From positions 173,426 to 237,425 of the forward strand of contig CAVWCZ010000006.1 of assembly GCA_963753675.1 (NCBI GenBank): a stretch of DNA of 64,000 nucleotides, in the 5' to 3' direction. Numbering within the stretch: the first letter of the stretch is position 1; each line of letters starts with the position of its first letter. The notes below the pieces were generated by a model. That model made no database searches. It saw only the letters and a program-made list of their open reading frames with translations, and was not told the origin of the DNA. The translations under genes and the position numbers were made by a program. Shown piece after piece: positions 11,960-63,355 of the stretch. The stretch comes from an uncultured Verrucomicrobiae bacterium (lineage in GTDB: Bacteria > Verrucomicrobiota > Verrucomicrobiia > Chthoniobacterales > UBA10450).

Positions 11960-13981
11960 ATGGACACCAATCGACATGAAACTGTAGCAGGGGCTGAGCC
12001 CGGTAATGGAAATGGGTCTACGAAGGGCGCGGTTAATGACCGTGGTTACGATTTCCCTAATTCCAAAAAAGTTTACGTCAACGGCACGCTGCATTCTGGA
12101 ATTCGCGTACCCTTCCGCGAAATCACTCTCGCGCCAACAAAGTCCTTAAACAGCGAGATCGAGGGTAGCGCGGGCACCTCGCCGGTACTCCTTCCCAACG
12201 AACCCGTGTGCGTGTACGACACAAGCGGTCCTTGGGGCGATCCTGAGTTTCATGGCGACGTTACCCGAGGGCTTCCGTCGCTACGTGCAAAATGGATACG
12301 TGATCGCGACGATGTGGAAGAAATCGAGGGACGAAAAGTTCAACCTGTCGATGACGGCTGGTTATCGGAGAAACATCAAACAGCGAGCGGAAAGAACAGT
12401 CTGGTAGAGCGCGACCGCCGGGCGCGCCGCAAACCGTTGCGCGCAAAGACCCATCCGGTTACGCAGCTCTGGTACGCGCGGCAGGGAATCATCACCCCGG
12501 AGATGGAATTCATCGCCATCCGCGAGAACATGGGCCGCGAACTTCCGGGGAGCGCGGGCGCCTCGCCCGCATCGTTCGGCGCCTCGCCGAACGGCTCTGA
12601 GATCAACCGCAACGATCTCGCGCACCAGCATCCTGGAAATTCATTCGGGGCAAGTATCCCACACGAGATCACTCCCGAATTCGTCCGCTCCGAGATCGCT
12701 CGTGGCCGGGCCATTATCCCTGCCAACATCAATCATCCCGAATCCGAGCCGATGATAATTAGCCGCAATTTTCTGGTAAAAATCAACGCCAACATCGGCA
12801 ACAGCGCCGTGGCGTCATCGATCGAGGAAGAAGTCGAAAAGATGCGTTGGGCTACCAAATGGGGTGCCGATACGGTGATGGATCTGAGCACCGGAAAAAA
12901 CATCCACGCCACCCGCGAATGGATCATTCGCAACTCTCCTGTGCCCATTGGCACTGTGCCGATTTATCAGGCACTGGAGAAAGTGGGAGGCCGTGCGGAG
13001 GAACTAAATTGGGAAATATACCGTGACACATTAATCGAACAGGCTGAACAAGGTGTGGATTATTTTACGGTGCATGCGGGAGTGCTTTTGCGCTTCATTC
13101 CCTTAACGGCGAACCGCGCGACCGGGATTGTTTCCAGGGGAGGGAGCATCATGGCCAAGTGGTGTCTGGCGCATCATTCGGAGAGTTTCCTTTACACAAA
13201 CTGGGACGAAATCTGCGAGATCATGGCGGCATACGACGTCAGCTTTTCAATTGGCGACGGTCTTCGCCCCGGCTCAATTGCCGACGCGAACGACGAAGCG
13301 CAGTTTGCAGAACTTTACACGCAGGGCGAACTGACCAGACGCGCGTGGGCGCATCATGTGCAGGTGATGAACGAAGGCCCTGGCCACATCCCCATGCACA
13401 TGATCAAGGAGAACATGGAGAAACAACTTGAGTGGTGCGAAGAAGCGCCGTTCTACACGCTCGGTCCGCTCACCACCGACATTGCACCCGGCTACGATCA
13501 CATCACCAGCGCCATCGGCGCGGCTATGATCGGCTGGTACGGTTGTGCCATGCTTTGCTACGTCACGCCGAAAGAACATCTGGGATTGCCTGACAAGAAG
13601 GACGTGAAAGACGGCGTCATTGCCTACAAGATCGCTGCGCACGCCGCAGATTTGGCGAAAGGCCATCCCGGTGCGCAGTACCGCGACAACGCCGTCAGCA
13701 AGGCGCGTTTCGAGTTTCGATGGGAAGATCAATTCAATCTTTCACTGGATCCCGAAACGGCGCGTTCTTTTCATGATGAGACCCTTCCAATGGAAGGAGC
13801 GAAATCAGCCCATTTCTGCTCCATGTGTGGTCCCCATTTTTGCAGCATGAAGATAACGGAAGACGTTAGAAAATATGCAGCACAAAAGGGAATTGATGAG
13901 AATACGGCTCTCGAACAAGGGTTGCGTGATAAGGCAGCAGAATTTCAACACGCGGGAGCGGAAATTTATTCCAAGCCATGA
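11960..13981 (+). CDS. thiC: phosphomethylpyrimidine synthase
   Basis: Very strong family similarity ([25 protein letters not shown]-terminal [11 protein letters not shown] cluster motif). Start moved to ATG 11960, downstream of the riboswitch. Confidence 0.95.
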
Positions 13982-13982
13982 C

Positions 13983-14072
13983 GAATGGAGCCGACCGGGA
14001 TGAGGCGACATAGAGTGGAGTTCACGGCCAGCCCGGTGAGGGCGGAGATGATGAGCATCGGATTCGTCAAAC
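13983..14072 (+). repeat. degenerate copy of the four-helix-bundle cassette leader
   Basis: gaatggagccgaccgggatgaggcgacatagag matches gaatggagccaatgggatgagcgacatagaag at 43355. It ends with a gattcgtcaaac-like tail. Confidence 0.45.
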
Positions 14073-14082
14073 TCTTCCGCCG

Positions 14083-60235: not shown

Positions 60236-61468
60236 ATGAAAGCTGCCTGCCTCGTTCTGCTAGCCTGTGTCGCCACCTTTGCGTTGCCGGCACAGGGGCA
60301 GCGGGACGGGGTGATCAATGACCCGAATGGTTTCGTCAATGTCCGCGCCGAAAAAAGCGCGGATGCCACCGTGATTGCAACGGTGAAAACCGGCGAACTG
60401 TTTACGTTCGAGGCGGAAGACGACGACTGGTGCAAAGTTACACTGAAGTCGGGCAGGTCCGGCTGGATGCAGCTCAGTCGCATTCGCCTTCATTTCACCG
60501 GGAAAGATTTGCCGAGTGACGAGAAGGATCCCGCCGGCGAATCGGAGATCGGCCAATTCGCGCATGGGCGAGGATTCAAATATGGCGCGGTCACCCGGCG
60601 AGCGGCTCATGGCGAGGCAAAGGCGCTGAAACAGTTTTTCTCCCTCGCGCAAGATGCCGACGGCGCAGCGGCGGAGAGCATCTCGGGTGTTCCCACGGTG
60701 GTCTATCACATTCTAGGCGACGAGAAGTTTTCGAAATTCCTGCTCGCTCAGCCTTTGCCCTATCGGATGATGGTACGAAACCGAATTCTGAGCGATGGCC
60801 TAATCCCTCATGCCACTCTGTATCTCAGTCGAAATTTTCCGCTAACAACCAGGGCGCTGTTTCAACGCGAGATCGTCGATTGGTTTTCGCCTAACGACCT
60901 TTATGCCATCCGCAAAGTTTTCACCGACGAGTTAGAGTTGGCCGGATCGAAAGTTGAACGAGCCGAGCTGATCGAAAAGAAGACCGGCCGGGTGCTATTG
61001 GATCTGACGTCCGACGACATCGGCACGGGCGCGCAGCGCGAAGGCGAAGCTCTCTGGTCGCCCGATTCGAAACGAGTCGCCTGCCTCTCGAGCGACTTGA
61101 CCGATCAGCGCGGCAACTTGTTCAGCACGCCGCGCCCGGCGCCGCAGAAGAAACAGACCGCGGTTTACCAGCTCTCCGGTGACTCATTCACCCATGTCGA
61201 GCTACCCATGGGCGAAGTTCCCGGGCGCGATAAGGACACCGAACTGGAGCGCGCAATTCTCGGCCACGAGTATACCGAGCCGATCCGTTGGCAGAAGCCA
61301 AACGTGCTCGTTCTCGAGAGACACGAATATTACGAGGTGATGAAACCCACGGAGATCGGCAACGTAAAGTTCGAGTCGATACACGGCTTGAGCCGTCTGT
61401 ATCAAATCACCGCTATCATCGACGCGGATGGAAAGGCGACACTTGCCTGGAAACTCCGCAAGAACTGA
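60236..61468 (+). CDS. secreted protein with N-terminal bacterial SH3 domain
   Basis: Signal peptide, then VINDPNGFVNVRAEKSADATVIATVKTGELFTFEAEDDDWCKVTLKSGRSGWM (SH3_3-like). The rest is unassigned. Confidence 0.6.
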   Translation: MKAACLVLLACVATFALPAQGQRDGVINDPNGFVNVRAEKSADATVIATVKTGELFTFEAEDDDWCKVTLKSGRSGWMQLSRIRLHFTGKDLPSDEKDPAGESEIGQFAHGRGFKYGAVTRRAAHGEAKALKQFFSLAQDADGAAAESISGVPTVVYHILGDEKFSKFLLAQPLPYRMMVRNRILSDGLIPHATLYLSRNFPLTTRALFQREIVDWFSPNDLYAIRKVFTDELELAGSKVERAELIEKKTGRVLLDLTSDDIGTGAQREGEALWSPDSKRVACLSSDLTDQRGNLFSTPRPAPQKKQTAVYQLSGDSFTHVELPMGEVPGRDKDTELERAILGHEYTEPIRWQKPNVLVLERHEYYEVMKPTEIGNVKFESIHGLSRLYQITAIIDADGKATLAWKLRKN

Positions 61469-61540
61469 CAAGCAACATACCGGAGAAGACCAGGCGCTGG
61501 TGATATCGCCAAGAGAGTCGTTCCGCGCTCGACGCTCGTC

Positions 61541-63114
61541 TTAATTGGCGGGTTTACCCACAGCAATGGTGGAGGAACGCTGATCTGCCACGTAAATCCA
61601 ACCTTTGTCGTCAACCGCGACTGCGACGGGATCATCAAACGGAGATTCATTGTGAACGTCGCGCAATGTTTTTACCACCCCACCGGGTGTAATCTTGCGG
61701 ATGTTCTTATTCCCATCGTCGGCCACATACACGTTTCCGGCGGAATCGACTGCGATAGCTTGGGGATTCCTGAAAAGTGCCGCTGACCCGTCCCGTCCGT
61801 GCTACCTTCTTTATTGGGCGAACCGGCCAGCGTTGTGACGATCCCACCTCTGTCAATTCTGCGGACCGTTACCCTATCAACTACATAGAGATTGCCTTTA
61901 TCATCGAAGGCGACACCGGACGGAAAACTAAAGCGAGCCGACTTTGCTTGTCCGTCGACGGTCCCGTTGGTCCCAGGTTTCCCGGCCACGGTCGTAACGC
62001 TGCCGTCCGGAGCAATTTTCCGAATCACGAAATTGTTCGAGTCGGCTACAAACACGTTTCCATCCTTATCAAGAGCGATTCCCAGCGGGTTGTTAAAGTG
62101 GTCGACACTGCCGAAGCCAAGTTTCCGCTCCTCGGTTGCCGGTGTGCCAGCAAGAGTGCTGACAGCGCCGGCAGGAGTAACCTTTCGAACCGCCTGACCG
62201 GAGGAATCCGCTACGTAGACGTTACCCGAGGCATCCACCGCAATGCCTACCGGATACCAGAAGCGCGCTGCCTCACCGGTTCCATCCACTCTTCCATACT
62301 TTCCCGGAGATCCGGCGAGCGTGGTGACAATTCCCTTTCTCGAAATTTTCCGGATGAGATGATTACCACGATCTGCCACAAAAATATTTCCCGACGAGTC
62401 CACGGCGAGACCGTGCGGCCACTTGAATTTGGCGGTCGCGCCCGCGCCGTCAGCGCGGCCCTCGGTTCCTCCTGCGAGCACGGTGAAAGCATAATTTTCG
62501 TAGTCATATTCCGGCTCCGGTTCGGCTTTTGGCGCGATCGTTTCAACAAACGCCAGACGCGGTTTGGGGCTGCGGGCCAGCCCACAAATCACTTCGTATA
62601 ATTCTCCGGTGTTTCCCTGATAGGTGAACTTCAATCTATTCCCCGACAACCACTCCAAAGCGGAGAGATAATCCTGCGACTTTCCGCCCTCCGTGTTTGC
62701 TTGCGCGCGCACCTGATCGATCGCCTTTTCCGGCAGATCAACTTCCTTCCATGATCCGCCCTTCGAGACAAAGACTCGGGACACGGTGATGTTCCGTCCT
62801 TCGTCGATATTGAGGGCGAAAGCGCTGGAGTCTTTGTTCCACACAGCTGAAATCCGGTAGCGAGAATCGCTCGCCTGAAAGTCGCCGTGAGAAAATCGAC
62901 CCACCACGTTTCCTTTGCGCAGAGTCTTGAGCACAACCTGGCATCCCTCGTCGTTATCCACGCCGATACCTTCGAGTCGGTAGCGGCCGTCAGGCGACGT
63001 CGCGTCCTCGATCTTAACTGGAACATTCGCATCTGCCTGGCTGACGAGGATCGAGCTCAAAAGGAACGTTAGGAGTATTCTCATCTGTTTGTGAACCATA
63101 CCGTAGCTGGTCAC
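61541..63114 (-). pseudogene. NHL repeat beta-propeller protein with a 1-nt frameshift near 61792
   Basis: Repeats of the type GNIFVADRGNHLIRKI / GNVYVADSSGQAVRKV. After the frameshift, the repeat NVYVADDGNKNIRKITPGGV continues in ORF 61541..61732. Confidence 0.7.
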
Positions 63115-63355
63115 GAAATGTCCCGTCTCTGCGGCGCGATCTTCCTACTTGATCTTTCCCGCGCAAACAACGCAAAAATCTCAATCCGATTCCGCCGCCA
63201 AAACGACCCGGATAAAAAAGCGACGCTCGCTTGGAAGCTTCGCAAAGCCCACTGTGGGCACCGTCCACAGTGGTAGCGTTCCTGGGATTCTCAGTAAACG
63301 ACTGAAAAGGCGTGCTTGATCCGCGCAAGGTCGTTGTTCACTTTTGCCGCGATCT

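Follow-up and report, generated by a model that had tools for sequence, protein, structure and literature searches.

Within a 64-kb stretch of DNA (the window) from a soil Verrucomicrobium resembling Candidatus Udaeobacter, self-blastn, tblastn and reading of the sequence reveal duplicated gene ends at six of six loci. Ordinary genes here have probably had an end swapped for DNA from a related strain, the old end persisting past the inserted DNA. Such behavior has been known so far mainly from toxin genes (rhs, CDI, T6SS) and from fungal mitochondria; the genes described here are ordinary ones. A preliminary description of this DNA had listed six such loci, each of which is confirmed, and at every one the working gene retains a functional end, as stated there. 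The same description placed each displaced copy beyond inserted DNA. This picture is too simple for thiC copies c and d and for the displaced 3' part of the exonuclease gene, which abut each other. The displaced copies of thiC and of the MFS transporter and S10 peptidase genes are all 5'-truncated, with their own stop codons and differing downstream DNA. Features are collected in Table 1; relatives, all of them MAGs or metagenome contigs, carry L numbers.

Table 1. Genes, displaced gene ends and repeats in the window, in order of position
Feature	Position	Strand	Support
TPP riboswitch before thiC	11810-11910	+	Rfam RF00059, 67.6 bits
thiC, intact	11849-13981	+	Pfam PF01964 5e-184
thiC 3' end copy a, attached and functional	13682-13981	+	
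Fragment resembling four-helix-bundle cassette 5' region, directly after thiC stop	13983-14014	+	Compared by eye with 43353-43390 family; 91% match in L005
thiC 3' end copy b, displaced, 5'-truncated, own stop	14068-14247	+	tblastn 48% aa identity, E = 9e-13
Small membrane protein gene, intact	17464-17889	-	
REP1, two hairpins, upstream of small membrane protein gene	17948-18070		Families D3, D6
5'-3' exonuclease, intact	20067-20930	-	Pfam PF02739/PF01367
REP2 27-nt hairpin, in-frame insertion in exonuclease CDS, reads RVKGSASRG	20836-20862		
REP2 hairpin, right end abutting displaced exonuclease 5' fragment	20956-20982		
Displaced exonuclease 5' fragment (ELYELFRHFY), 30 nt, adjoining REP2	20983-21012	-	Translation
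Displaced small membrane protein gene 5' end (22114-22211) with REP1 (22262-22383)	22114-22383	-	
Displaced exonuclease 3' part, frame still open	25329-25655	-	86% to intact copy, 88-89% to relatives
182-bp filler at novel joint, exonuclease fragment/thiC fragment	25656-25837		
thiC 3' end copy c, displaced, one frameshift	25838-26133	+	blastn 72.7% over 264 nt, E = 5e-36
Repeat element between thiC copies c and d	26141-26241		
thiC 3' end copy d, displaced	26229-26363	+	56% aa identity, E = 2e-10
S10 serine carboxypeptidase gene with attached end	30009-31790	+	Pfam PF00450
REP2/GIY-YIG cassette	31791-32192		Pfam PF01541 2e-14, sequence
Inverted REP2 in S10 cassette	31791-31817		
REP2 in S10 cassette	31861-31887		
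GIY-YIG gene in S10 cassette	31880-32143	-	Pfam PF01541 2e-14
REP2 at S10 cassette end	32166-32192		
S10 joint: 32193-32202 resembling GIY-YIG 3' tail, then displaced S10 end (about 32203-32260)	32193-32260	+	
IS110, sole transposase in window	33318-34469		
Four-helix-bundle protein gene (TIGR02436), 1-nt frameshift; start 9 nt from MFS copy 3	40262-40714	-	
MFS 3' end copy 3, outermost, own tail and stop	40724-40815	-	85.7%, E = 8e-21
MFS 3' end copy 2, displaced, own divergent tail LQEHRTRQD and stop, sharp 5' boundary 41156	40909-41156	-	92.8%, E = 9e-90
DNA between attached MFS end and copy 2; holds an ORF without assigned function	41157-43496		
Zinc alcohol dehydrogenase gene between MFS end copies	42081-43073		
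Four-helix-bundle 5' fragment between MFS end copies	43339-43439		
MFS transporter gene, intact	43497-44858	-	Pfam PF07690 2e-59
Displaced MFS 5' end, 37 nt, starting about 130 nt upstream of start codon	44989-45025	-	
SH3-domain protein gene with attached end	60215-61468	+	Pfam PF08239
NHL-repeat protein gene between both SH3 ends	61672-63114	-	Pfam PF01436
Displaced SH3 gene end (DPDKKATLAWKLRKAHCGHRPQW, then stop)	63205-63276	+	

The richest locus is thiC, whose true start lies 3' of the riboswitch. The two duplicated modules noticed earlier are copies c and d, but there are four 3' ends rather than two; copy b had been missed. The gene itself is a mosaic. Sliding identity against seven relatives places its body closest to L007 and L005 (87-93%), while from about 13700-13740 the tail is closest to L008 by 10-20 points; this switch sits just inside the repeated segment, which begins at 13682. 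Copy b lacks the CGPHFCSM motif, and its RQTLP boundary is common to L161 and L162. Copy c shares 85% amino acid identity with the functional tail of L009 and differs from the attached end at 21, 13 and 50 sites in codon positions 1, 2 and 3. Copy d has a VKITED boundary matching the displaced end of L009, where the homologue of the repeat between c and d lies within an insertion of ~300 bp whose flanking sequences overlap by 8 bp. Close relatives differ in whether the site is empty or occupied: L002 and L010 have 85-90 bp between thiC and the exonuclease gene (empty site), and in eight others this interval contains unrelated cargo, from 0.7 to about 8 kb.

At the exonuclease gene both ends are duplicated, as had been claimed: besides the 30-nt 5' copy, 20107-20408 matches 25347-25648 (86.4%, E = 2e-99), with differences of 14/9/32 by codon position. 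Comparison with relatives set the limits of this 3' fragment. The earlier claim for the small membrane protein gene likewise stands, its 5' end and upstream REP1 (17797-18070) matching the displaced copy at 81% (E = 7e-66). Resemblance to L009 is greatest (85-93%) in the exonuclease fragment, in the displaced 5' end of the small membrane protein gene and in the genes adjoining them; intact copies reach 80-85%. The displaced exonuclease fragment is 88% identical to L009 and the intact gene 85% at the nucleotide level; for the small membrane protein gene the values are 85% and 80%. An L009-like gene (23881-25152) is the downstream neighbor of the displaced exonuclease 3' part. To judge from these identities, the intact exonuclease gene is probably the imported allele. 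It sits inside cargo, between permuted HicB-like fragments, a position that a simple displacement model leaves unexplained and that counts against such a model. The exonuclease fragment is followed by the 182-bp filler, for which a search found no homologue, and then by thiC copy c. This arrangement is as expected for a thiC-to-exonuclease segment that was circularised, duplicated or joined on one side, and the history of the region requires at least three events.

Self-blastn bears out the three 3' ends and two 5' ends previously attributed to the MFS transporter gene; the 5' copies (44823-44862 and 44989-45025) are 87.5% identical over 40 nt, with gaps (E = 1e-5). Substitutions in 3' copy 2 fall 1/0/14 by codon position. 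That 14 of 15 are at third positions speaks against an origin in place with one copy evolving neutrally (P = 1e-4). At S10, 31721-31788 matches 32191-32258 (92.6%, E = 2e-21); the clearly S10-derived part is 58 nt, 55 of them identical, in agreement with the 60 bp at 95 percent first noted. The SH3 duplication across the NHL gene, raised only as a possibility, is now established: DADGKATLAWKLRK (61421-61462) matches DPDKKATLAWKLRK (63205-63246) at 12 of 14 amino acids.

Are these isolated accidents? The preliminary description thought not, and the pattern is indeed recurrent and a trait of the lineage. Displaced ends of thiC occur in L005, L008, L009 and L012, of the MFS gene in L007, where the copy-3 arrangement beside the four-helix-bundle gene recurs, and of S10 in L081, L082 and L085. 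A comparison of sampled loci with those of other bacteria gives a raised rate: the density of terminal gene fragments in Verrucomicrobial loci is ~5 times that of other phyla sampled in the same way (p = 0.007).

The third-position bias in most displaced copies indicates that they diverged as functional alleles rather than by duplication in place. Taken with the mosaic thiC, this allelic origin speaks for recombination with related-strain DNA. The explanation we favor, with reasonable but not high confidence, is that the duplicated ends are scars of gene-end displacement ('C-terminal', occasionally N-terminal) at hot spots of accessory-gene exchange. We infer the route of DNA entry and the order of events as follows. 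Related-strain DNA would enter, by natural competence or some other route, bringing the end of a conserved gene and its donor neighborhood. On one side a homologous crossover would occur inside the conserved gene, often in the last conserved block. The far side, lacking homology, would join by an illegitimate event, either at a microhomology or where a REP hairpin ends; this join would fall within the resident gene, upstream of its resident end. The result would be an intact gene with an imported end, and a resident end that is 5'-truncated and pushed outward with its own stop codon and downstream DNA. Repeated events could stack ends, as in thiC a-b and c-d or MFS copies 1-2-3. The illegitimate join may occur during integration, by homology-facilitated illegitimate recombination (HFIR). 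HFIR usually deletes recipient DNA instead of duplicating it, which counts against this route. Alternatively, the join may precede integration, at circularisation of the fragment, and one crossover would then integrate the circle, as has been proposed for rhs. Once made, the structure may spread by ordinary homologous recombination. The displaced ends share their anatomy and proposed mechanisms with those of rhs (PMC2935791) and of T6SS effector-immunity arrays (PMC5361080). HFIR is stated to be rare in laboratory work (PMC5361080), a further point against it.

Repeats and cassettes often lie at the junctions, as the preliminary description said: at several joints the neighbor is a REP2 hairpin or a piece of a GIY-YIG or four-helix-bundle cassette. 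Three abut the right end of REP2, namely the S10 joint of the window, that of L081/L082/L085 and the exonuclease 5' fragment. The suggestion of REP-mediated illegitimate recombination is nearly right for these three joints, the only ones at which it is supported. An association of joints with repeats beyond both being intergenic was not demonstrated. Microhomology is demonstrable at the S10 joint only, where the GIY-YIG 3' tail and S10 agree at 10 of 13 nt; the remaining joints have no identifiable parent sequence.

Cassettes at the junctions also suggest homing, in which a nuclease of the GIY-YIG/REP2 (and four-helix-bundle) cassette cuts near the insertion site, donor repair copies cassette and flank, and the native end stays downstream, as modeled on the mobile endonuclease ORFs of fungal mitochondria (PMC3630166). 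The anatomy of S10 (attached end, endonuclease gene, native end) is exactly of this type (PMC3630166). The cassette follows the S10 stop codon in six contigs (L081, L082, L084, L085 and L090 among them) and ancestral sequence does so in at least seven. Relatives whose S10 proteins are 95-97% identical may have or lack it. GIY-YIG proteins form a very large family (1677 clusters at E <= 1e-10, most of them on short contigs), three joints have REP2 right ends, and cassette fragments adjoin the thiC and MFS ends. Nevertheless, we regard homing as an unlikely general mechanism, and here the earlier interpretation, sound on pattern and recurrence, is not supported. Six other GIY-YIG cassettes (in L007, L008 and L013, and three in L009) have REP2 direct repeats only and no flank duplication. 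Of the loci in the window, S10 alone has a GIY-YIG gene between its two copies; thiC, MFS, SH3 and the exonuclease 3' end have no intervening endonuclease gene. Unlike the fungal precedent, both S10 copies are equidistant from relatives, and neither is foreign. The 87-aa GIY-YIG protein is a bare catalytic domain without a DNA-binding domain and matched no NCBIfam family. Homing alone, moreover, yields clean conversion rather than duplication.

Quite unlikely, too, is that the ends are remnants of site-specific integrative elements carrying the target 3' end in their attachment site, with the integrase lost or acting in trans. Phage 21 and e14 at icd carry a target 3' end in this way, and integrase-mediated islands typically replace the gene end, displace the old copy beyond the insert and stack at one site, the very traits seen here. 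Certain thiC joints also recur at one codon in different genomes: REP4 adjoins the first Cys codon at the thiC joints of L008, L012 and L005, and the RQTLP boundary recurs in the window, L161 and L162. Against this, a Pfam scan of the larger ORFs of the window found no tyrosine or serine recombinase, in line with the preliminary description, which likewise saw IS110 as the only transposase; none was found in 18 kb of cargo across L003, L004 and L008. An exact core repeat is lacking: the segments that recur span 33-300 bp at 73-95% identity. Boundaries vary within a gene (57-68 versus 33 nt at S10, at least four positions in thiC), and some 'insertions' are merely 60-150 bp.

Duplication in place, whether tandem or slipped, with one copy then decaying and unrelated DNA inserting, is very improbable as a general account. 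It would suit the internal direct repeat of thiC (HFCSM...HFCSM), of which copy b is short by exactly one unit, and the exonuclease/thiC junction is also compatible with a tandem-duplication junction. At S10, where the copies are nearly identical and equidistant from relatives, duplication in place and later exchange of the downstream DNA could conceivably still apply. However, the displaced S10 end runs on into ancestral, empty-site sequence instead of a second cassette, which excludes simple tandem duplication. Elsewhere, at MFS, thiC and the exonuclease, the third-position bias rejects neutral one-copy decay. In addition, thiC changes its nearest relative close to where the repeated segment starts, displaced copies have different, allele-like tails, and the donor allele L008 matches attached copy a better than the displaced ends.

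An assembler joining strain variants of one population serially, the misassembly once considered for this window, is scarcely credible: the copies do resemble alleles of co-occurring strains and some long-read relatives (L165, L166) have frameshift errors, but the same structures recur in MAGs and contigs that were assembled independently, in different projects and with different assemblers (thiC in L005, L008, L009, L012, L161-164 and L168-169; S10 in L081, L082 and L085; MFS in L007), the joints offer no shared k-mer for an assembler jump, and one orphan protein occurs on 58 contigs, of which the 24 read have similar context.

One unexplained feature is that orphan thiC tails are abundant and change as a coding sequence does (dN/dS about 0.03). 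In L161 and L162, whose orphan tails share a joint, dS is saturated and dN/dS is 0.03; a scar should not show this, and the value counts against reading these tails purely as scars.

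Six loci in the window carry duplicated gene ends, as had been noticed from the sequence alone, and self-blastn, tblastn with the ThiC C-terminus and direct reading confirm them all. The genes affected (thiC, an MFS transporter, an S10 peptidase, a 5'-3' exonuclease and an SH3 protein gene) have neither toxin domains nor paired immunity genes. At thiC the preliminary description was right about duplicated ends and incomplete in its account of them: there are four 3' ends, one attached to the intact gene (a) and three displaced (b, c and d). Behind the intact gene at thiC (b, c and d), MFS (copies 2 and 3), S10 and SH3 lie 5'-truncated copies of its 3' region, each in the orientation of the gene. 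Arrays of at least two displaced ends occur at thiC (three) and MFS (two). The repeated segments are 33-300 bp long and 73-95% identical, and their boundaries at the same gene vary between genomes. Each of the displaced thiC, MFS and S10 copies is cut on its 5' side, ends in its own stop codon and has different DNA behind it. The three MFS copies run to their stop codons as LHHSDHVDALE, LQEHRTRQD and LHDARQVDVK; the tails of the displaced copies are genuine alternative tails. A self-tblastx table was too noisy for statistics and served only to spot thiC b and d and the SH3 match.

The gene map (see the table) was drawn from Pfam and Rfam. The G+C content of the window is 56%, and its exonuclease shares 80-88% protein identity with those of MAGs labelled Candidatus Udaeobacter, Chthoniobacterales or Verrucomicrobiota. 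Pfam scans of the window's ORFs found no tyrosine or serine recombinase; among the ORFs scanned IS110 is the sole transposase, which bears out the earlier reading.

Genes, displaced gene ends and repeats in the window, in order of position
Feature	Position	Strand	Remark
TraB/PrgY/GumN-family gene	7886-8926	minus	adjacent to next
TraB/PrgY/GumN-family gene	8791-9723	minus	
TPP riboswitch and thiC	11810-13981		
REP1-like hairpins	12542-12599		in frame in variable ThiC loop
thiC 3' end a	13682-13981		attached
Four-helix-bundle end fragment	13983-14014		
thiC 3' end b	14068-14247		displaced
MscS channel gene, three unknown genes, GNAT gene			after thiC
HicB-like piece	19121-19190		3' piece
5'-3' exonuclease gene	20067-20930	minus	
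REP2 hairpin	20836-20862		in frame in exonuclease
HicB-like piece	21065-21243		
DnaJ-like gene			after exonuclease
REP3	23766-23859		downstream of DnaJ-like gene
Unknown gene	23881-25152	minus	
thiC 3' end c	25838-26133		displaced
thiC 3' end d	26229-26363		displaced
MarR-like, SDR, Fer4, SCP2 gene block; transglycosylase gene			ahead of S10
GIY-YIG gene fragment	29891-29965		upstream of transglycosylase gene
S10 peptidase gene	30009-31790		
Small GIY-YIG gene	31880-32143		after S10, between both S10 ends
RHH-PIN pair			after S10
REP1-like copy	33006-33065		60% identity
IS110-family transposase gene	33318-34469		after S10
Four-helix-bundle end fragments	37882-37942, 37988-38074, 38117-38176		
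Four-helix-bundle gene	40262-40714		ahead of MFS
MFS 3' end, copy 3	40724-40815		outermost
MFS 3' end, copy 2	40909-41156		displaced
Alcohol dehydrogenase gene			ahead of MFS
Four-helix-bundle end fragment	43339-43439		
MFS transporter gene	43497-44858	minus	
SNF2 helicase gene			after MFS
REP3	55560-55653		5' edge of M24 peptidase ORF
SH3 protein gene	60215-61468		NHL protein gene next

How frequent are such fragments elsewhere? One pipeline was applied to all sequences alike: ORFs of at least 200 aa were searched by tblastn against their own locus, and hits were kept if they lay outside the gene, covered <40% of it and reached its first or last 15%. The window (64 kb), whose rate is biased by its having been chosen for its unusual look, gave 7 hits, 5 of them genuine and 2 REP matches in over-long ORFs (7.8 per 100 kb). 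Verrucomicrobial loci (427 kb) gave 8 at ≥50% identity (1.9 per 100 kb), and loci from other phyla obtained with the same two query proteins (1060 kb) gave 4 (0.38 per 100 kb). The comparison of rates that the preliminary description had called for, run here on relatives' loci, thus finds terminal fragments 5.0 times denser in Verrucomicrobial loci (binomial p = 0.007), a ratio built on small counts, two-gene anchoring and non-independent thiC cases. The finding is real, and it belongs to the lineage rather than to the window's genome alone. Gene-end displacement by one-sided homologous recombination, at hot spots where accessory genes are exchanged, describes it best: one homologous crossover would fall inside the conserved gene, and one illegitimate joint would close the other side.

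At S10 the alleles can be compared directly among 19 contigs with 80-97% identical S10 proteins, returned by a metagenome scan. In the window and in L081, L082, L084, L085 and L090 (loci from relatives, either MAGs or metagenome contigs, carry L numbers) an inverted REP2 hairpin, of 27 nt, and a GIY-YIG cassette come directly after the S10 stop codon, whereas unrelated sequence follows it in L083, L086-L088 and L091-L093. In L086-L088 and L091 that sequence is the DNA behind the window's displaced S10 end (18-23 nt past the stop). Displaced end plus downstream DNA therefore represent an 'empty' allele, and attached end plus cassette an 'occupied' one. Tandem duplication in one chromosome is ruled out as their source.

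The S10 joint reads ACGCGG-AATCGTTTAAG-GCTCTAC. Its parents are ACGCGGGAAATCGTTTGAGATAA in the cassette and CAGGAATCGCTCAAGGCTCTAC in S10, so the join lies inside an imperfect 13-nt microhomology with 10 matches. Microhomology was assessable at S10 alone; a blastn search of all loci with ten joint regions recovered almost no parent sequences, and folding the joint regions gave no common hairpin structure. In L081, L082 and L085 the displaced S10 end is shorter (33 nt vs 57-68 nt) and fused to a variant REP2 hairpin, and the window's displaced exonuclease 5' fragment abuts the right end of REP2. Ends of the REP2/GIY-YIG cassette do participate in some illegitimate joints. A repeat lies no more than 50 nt from about 5 of the 11 joints, a proximity for which we claim no significance because joints and repeats are both confined to intergenic DNA.

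Does the cassette then drive the whole process? Homing by the GIY-YIG cassette agrees with the S10 anatomy, fungal mitochondria offer a precedent (PMC3630166), and hairpin-targeted homing with co-conversion of flanks had been suggested at the outset. As a general cause it fails. An endonuclease gene stands between the ends at S10 only, and is absent between the copies at thiC, MFS, SH3 and the exonuclease 3' end. Six other GIY-YIG cassettes (in L007, L008, L009 and L013) have REP2 repeats as their sole flanks; target duplication is thus absent at 6 of 7 cassettes, and where present its length varies as described for S10. A long target-site duplication as a property of the cassette was likewise rejected, since only REP2 repeats surround the GIY-YIG and four-helix-bundle matches in the loci.

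In-place duplication, by which each displaced end would be a copy made where it lies, is contradicted by three kinds of test: the empty sites at S10, codon positions and mosaic structure. We aligned displaced to attached copies in the gene's frame and tallied the differences by codon position. At positions 1, 2 and 3 they number 1, 0 and 14 for MFS copy 2 (with one 1-nt indel), 21, 13 and 50 for thiC copy c (one frameshift) and 14, 9 and 32 for the exonuclease 3' part, in which ~110 codons are still open. An in-place copy with one partner drifting neutrally should show ~45% of differences at third positions. For MFS copy 2 this model gives P = 1e-4, and full neutrality 2e-6. The copies of MFS, thiC c and the exonuclease therefore diverged with both partners under selection, as alleles in different lineages. 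The S10 copies differ at 3 of 58 S10-derived nucleotides (mutual match 55/58) and are equally distant from 14 relatives, which match the attached copy at 50-56 and the displaced copy at 49-55 of the 58. In-place duplication thus fails, except possibly as a first step at S10.

Mosaic structure is clearest between thiC and the exonuclease gene, which are convergent neighbours in relatives. The gap between them is 85-90 bp in L002 and L010, and holds 0.7 to ~8 kb of unrelated genes in L003, L004, L005, L007, L008, L009, L013 and L166. The window's cargo is the same as that of L009. In L003, L004 and L008 the cargo includes TPR proteins, a C39 peptidase, a SpoIIE phosphatase, a patatin-like protein, an HxlR regulator, a multicopper oxidase, DUF488 and DUF5615, and a Pfam scan of it found no recombinase or integrase. 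Displaced thiC ends adjoin the attached end in L005, L008 and L009 and lie upstream of the exonuclease gene in L012.

Sliding identity against seven relatives places the body of the window's thiC nearest to L007 and L005 (87-93%); from ~13700-13740 on, L008 is nearest by 10-20 points. This switch lies a little way into the repeated segment and just ahead of the last conserved block of ThiC; the attached tip and the gene body differ in ancestry. Copy c has 85% protein identity to the attached tail of L009 and a one-residue deletion in common with it, and copy d shares a VKITED boundary with the displaced end of L009. The ancestor of the window's arrangement was therefore L009-like, with c as the attached tail. 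Identity to L009 changes blockwise, from 77% in thiC and 80% over 16116-17907 to 85% in both the intact exonuclease and the displaced 5' end of the small membrane protein gene, 88% in the displaced exonuclease part and 92-93% over 22482-25153, with displaced fragments at the block edges. The displaced pieces follow the resident, L009-like background, and the intact copies follow imported DNA. Both the mosaic thiC and the shift of these blocks at displaced fragments place the homologous anchor in the conserved gene.

What would the donor have been? At the junction an exonuclease 3' fragment is followed by a 182-bp filler and thiC fragment c, an order that fits a donor segment reaching from the 3' part of thiC to the 3' part of the exonuclease gene. 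The segment's ends would have closed on each other, or else fused with the recipient immediately upstream of the crossover, and the recipient would have read thiC-c-d-MarR-SDR-Fer4-SCP2-transglycosylase. The proposed history does not explain why the intact exonuclease sits within the cargo, flanked by HicB-like fragments. A simple tandem duplication spanning thiC to the exonuclease was rejected, as it predicts an intact exonuclease outermost, by the transglycosylase gene, and this is not seen.

The HicB-like antitoxin gene pieces are permuted, 3' piece first, with 38 nt shared, and bracket a block of the intact exonuclease and toxin-antitoxin remnants (Phd/YefM-like by eye; a DUF4258 ORF by Pfam); the arrangement looks like a circle integrated by a single crossover. 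The exonuclease protein also has 66-77% identity to proteins in soil MAGs labelled Betaproteobacteria, Gemmatimonadota, Acidobacteriota, Bacteroidota and Binatia (loci L021-L080). Identity this unusually high across phyla suggests recent horizontal spread, and some of the MAG labels perhaps reflect mis-binned contigs.

The MFS array can be ordered in time. L007 has a displaced MFS end, and there a four-helix-bundle gene abuts the attached end as it abuts copy 3 in the window; copy 3 and the four-helix-bundle gene are therefore the oldest layer. Copy 2 came next, and then the present end with its dehydrogenase cargo.

Misassembly, which had been raised as an alternative, is improbable, since independent assemblies contain these same structures; one orphan protein (a displaced thiC tail) is indexed on 58 contigs. 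Decayed integrative elements fail as an explanation: the ORFs scanned include no integrase, a core repeat is lacking and boundaries are not fixed. Such elements, when they target a gene's 3' end, supply a replacement end, as phage 21 and e14 do at icd. The likeness is that the working gene's end is supplied by the insert and the old end lies beyond it; here, however, integrase and exact core are missing, boundaries vary and the 'inserts' are very short.

Gene-end displacement is known from polymorphic toxin loci, where old immunity genes explain the arrays, and from fungal mitochondria (PMC2935791, PMC5361080, PMC3630166). A literature search found no description of it for ordinary bacterial genes. 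At rhs loci an intact gene is followed by same-orientation 5'-truncated fragments (Jackson et al. 2009, PMC2935791); in the model proposed there, a tip and core fragment are excised as a circle, and a single homologous crossover shunts the old tip downstream. Here too a fragment is a conserved piece plus a divergent tip, the tips are laterally acquired and there is no integrase. In contrast to rhs, the genes are ordinary enzymes and transporters (thiC, MFS transporter, peptidase, exonuclease) rather than polymorphic toxins, no immunity gene explains why old ends are retained, the tips are homologous alleles instead of unrelated toxin domains, and 5' ends are hit too. Orphan cdiA-CT/cdiI arrays are related to rhs displacement.

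Vibrio cholerae T6SS effector genes undergo sequential displacement, attributed to homology-facilitated illegitimate recombination with a proposed later spread by homologous recombination (Kirchberger et al. 2017, PMC5361080). Common to both systems are the conserved upstream anchor, the illegitimate join downstream, old modules or 3' ends pushed back by successive events that build arrays, and the subsequent homologous spread. They differ in that retention in Vibrio is explained by selection for immunity genes, and in that the Vibrio events are said to be rare, against densities per 100 kb of 7.8 for the window and ~1.9 for the lineage. The circular-intermediate model and homology-facilitated illegitimate recombination each require a homologous crossover plus an illegitimate joint, yield the same product and are indistinguishable here.

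In fungal mitochondria mobile endonuclease ORFs (mORFs) replace the C-termini of Allomyces atp6 and of Glomus atp6, atp9, cox2 and nad3 (PMC3630166). For S10 the likeness is exact: gene, inserted C-terminus, endonuclease ORF (GIY-YIG or LAGLIDADG in fungi), native C-terminus; there, too, copies diverge chiefly at synonymous sites. Yet the fungal inserted end is foreign (64-81% identity) and the native end matches relatives, whereas the S10 ends are 95% identical and equally close. Moreover, most loci here lack an endonuclease gene, and the GIY-YIG protein is a bare 87-aa domain flanked by REP2 hairpins. Minimal mobile elements resemble the thiC-exonuclease interval in its different cassettes per relative, lack of mobility genes and signs of flanking-gene recombination, but their exchange is a clean double crossover without duplicated gene ends.

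How widespread are displaced thiC tails? A protein search with the displaced tail of L008 returned 1468 matches. The best 120 are all ≤90 aa, 82 of them exactly 52 aa and starting at the Met of CSM. Orphan thiC tails are thus a large family, with at least 82 distinct 52-aa clusters, and hundreds of 52-aa 'phosphomethylpyrimidine synthase' calls in metagenome annotation are such orphans. In L161-L164, L168 and L169 a complete thiC is followed after 120-146 bp by an orphan and then by variable cargo; the orphan holds this position in every looked-up context with a complete thiC. L167 and L168 have an identical 83-aa orphan and the same downstream genes, after thiC in L168 but preceded in L167 by T2SSF, CopG-like and pilin-like genes with no thiC upstream. 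An orphan end can therefore travel with its downstream DNA. Diverse orphan boundaries were also considered as a record of many independent events, a reading we downgraded: at least two longer 'orphans' (P0217 and P0218, in L165 and L166) are parts of a thiC broken by frameshifts in long-read assemblies, and the apparent variety is therefore partly artefact.

Orphans appear to be under purifying selection. L161 and L162 have the same joint, and over 88 nt their spacers, rich in hairpins, are 93% identical. Between the two orphans 45 of 198 nt differ, including 32 of the 66 third positions, and 9 amino acids are changed; dN/dS is ~0.03, against 0.04 for attached tails, the same constraint. For 5 of 7 orphans the frame runs uninterrupted upstream as far as the stop codon of thiC. 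In a small tree, orphans do not cluster with the attached tails of their own genomes but with one another and with those of L002 and L010, the two genomes whose thiC-exonuclease gap is empty. Three readings of the constraint are possible. The orphan may be functional. It may be repeatedly renewed, because transfer of a 'new tail plus spacer' into a naive genome makes that genome's working tail an orphan; synonymous differences between L161 and L162 start in the third codon past the joint, which argues against simple renewal by homologous crossover. Or it may occasionally be re-attached through recombination between both tails.

The attached-orphan spacers (L161-L164, 3855-4000; L008, L012, L005) are hairpin-rich and far better conserved than flanking synonymous sites. 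One of these spacers, REP4 (...CCCGCCGTAGCCTCGGCGAAGGAGGA), is a dispersed repeat and gives AAGGAGGA-N6-ATG ahead of the orphan in L008 and L012.

The same process as in toxin loci and mitochondria here acts on housekeeping and ordinary accessory genes, at a density high enough to measure, in Candidatus Udaeobacter, among the most abundant soil bacterial groups. If general, displaced ends would be a readable record of recombination (donor, crossover position, order of events), and would show that accessory genes can enter hot spots without a mobility enzyme, via one homologous and one illegitimate join. The apparent selection on orphans raises the question of whether spare ends are re-used. 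The lineage may keep a reservoir of them, a tip-switching system beyond toxin genes in which recombination attaches ends to ordinary genes and takes them off again. Alternatively, the orphans may encode small proteins paralogous to the Fe-S-binding tail of ThiC. The ends of the REP2/GIY-YIG cassette may form the illegitimate joins, and the cassette may also land in frame inside coding sequences. That displaced ends are not all dead scars, and that the cassette is in parallel a new hairpin-flanked mobile element, strikes us as rather unlikely.

A literature search on GIY-YIG/REP cassettes and Udaeobacter repeat biology found nothing relevant. The stop codon of the window's 87-aa GIY-YIG protein lies inside a REP2 hairpin. 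Its family numbers 1677 clusters at E ≤ 1e-10, more than 100 of them at 82-97% identity, and most sit on contigs of 0.5-2.5 kb, which is what an assembly-breaking repeat should produce. In L008 (reverse complement 11470-12229) a GIY-YIG cassette interrupts the transglycosylase homologue, replacing the part that matches window 29416-29762, and the window has a GIY-YIG fragment upstream of its own transglycosylase gene. The four-helix-bundle gene, of the '23S rRNA intervening sequence protein' family (TIGR02436), is frameshifted by 1 nt, and pieces from both its ends, 5' and 3', lie close behind the stop codons of thiC, the MFS gene and a DinB-family gene.

The REP2 hairpin within the exonuclease gene reads RVKGSASRG. 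It also occurs in exonuclease genes of L001, L002, L003, L005, L006, L012 and L013; its presence, number and position vary among relatives, with two hot spots, after RRFT and after MIENGD. Rickettsia palindromic elements lie inside genes in a like manner. The REP1-like insertion in the ThiC loop is absent in L004, and shorter or different in L009 and L003. The two REP3 copies (~94 nt, 83-88% identical) belong to a third repeat family with several copies in L009; the M24 peptidase ORF seems longer than real because REP3 lies at its 5' edge. Some IS110/IS1111 elements prefer hairpin repeats, and the REP1-like copy ~250 bp from the IS110 gene fits this. The TraB/PrgY/GumN pair, with ~43% protein identity, is an old tandem duplication unrelated to the displaced ends.
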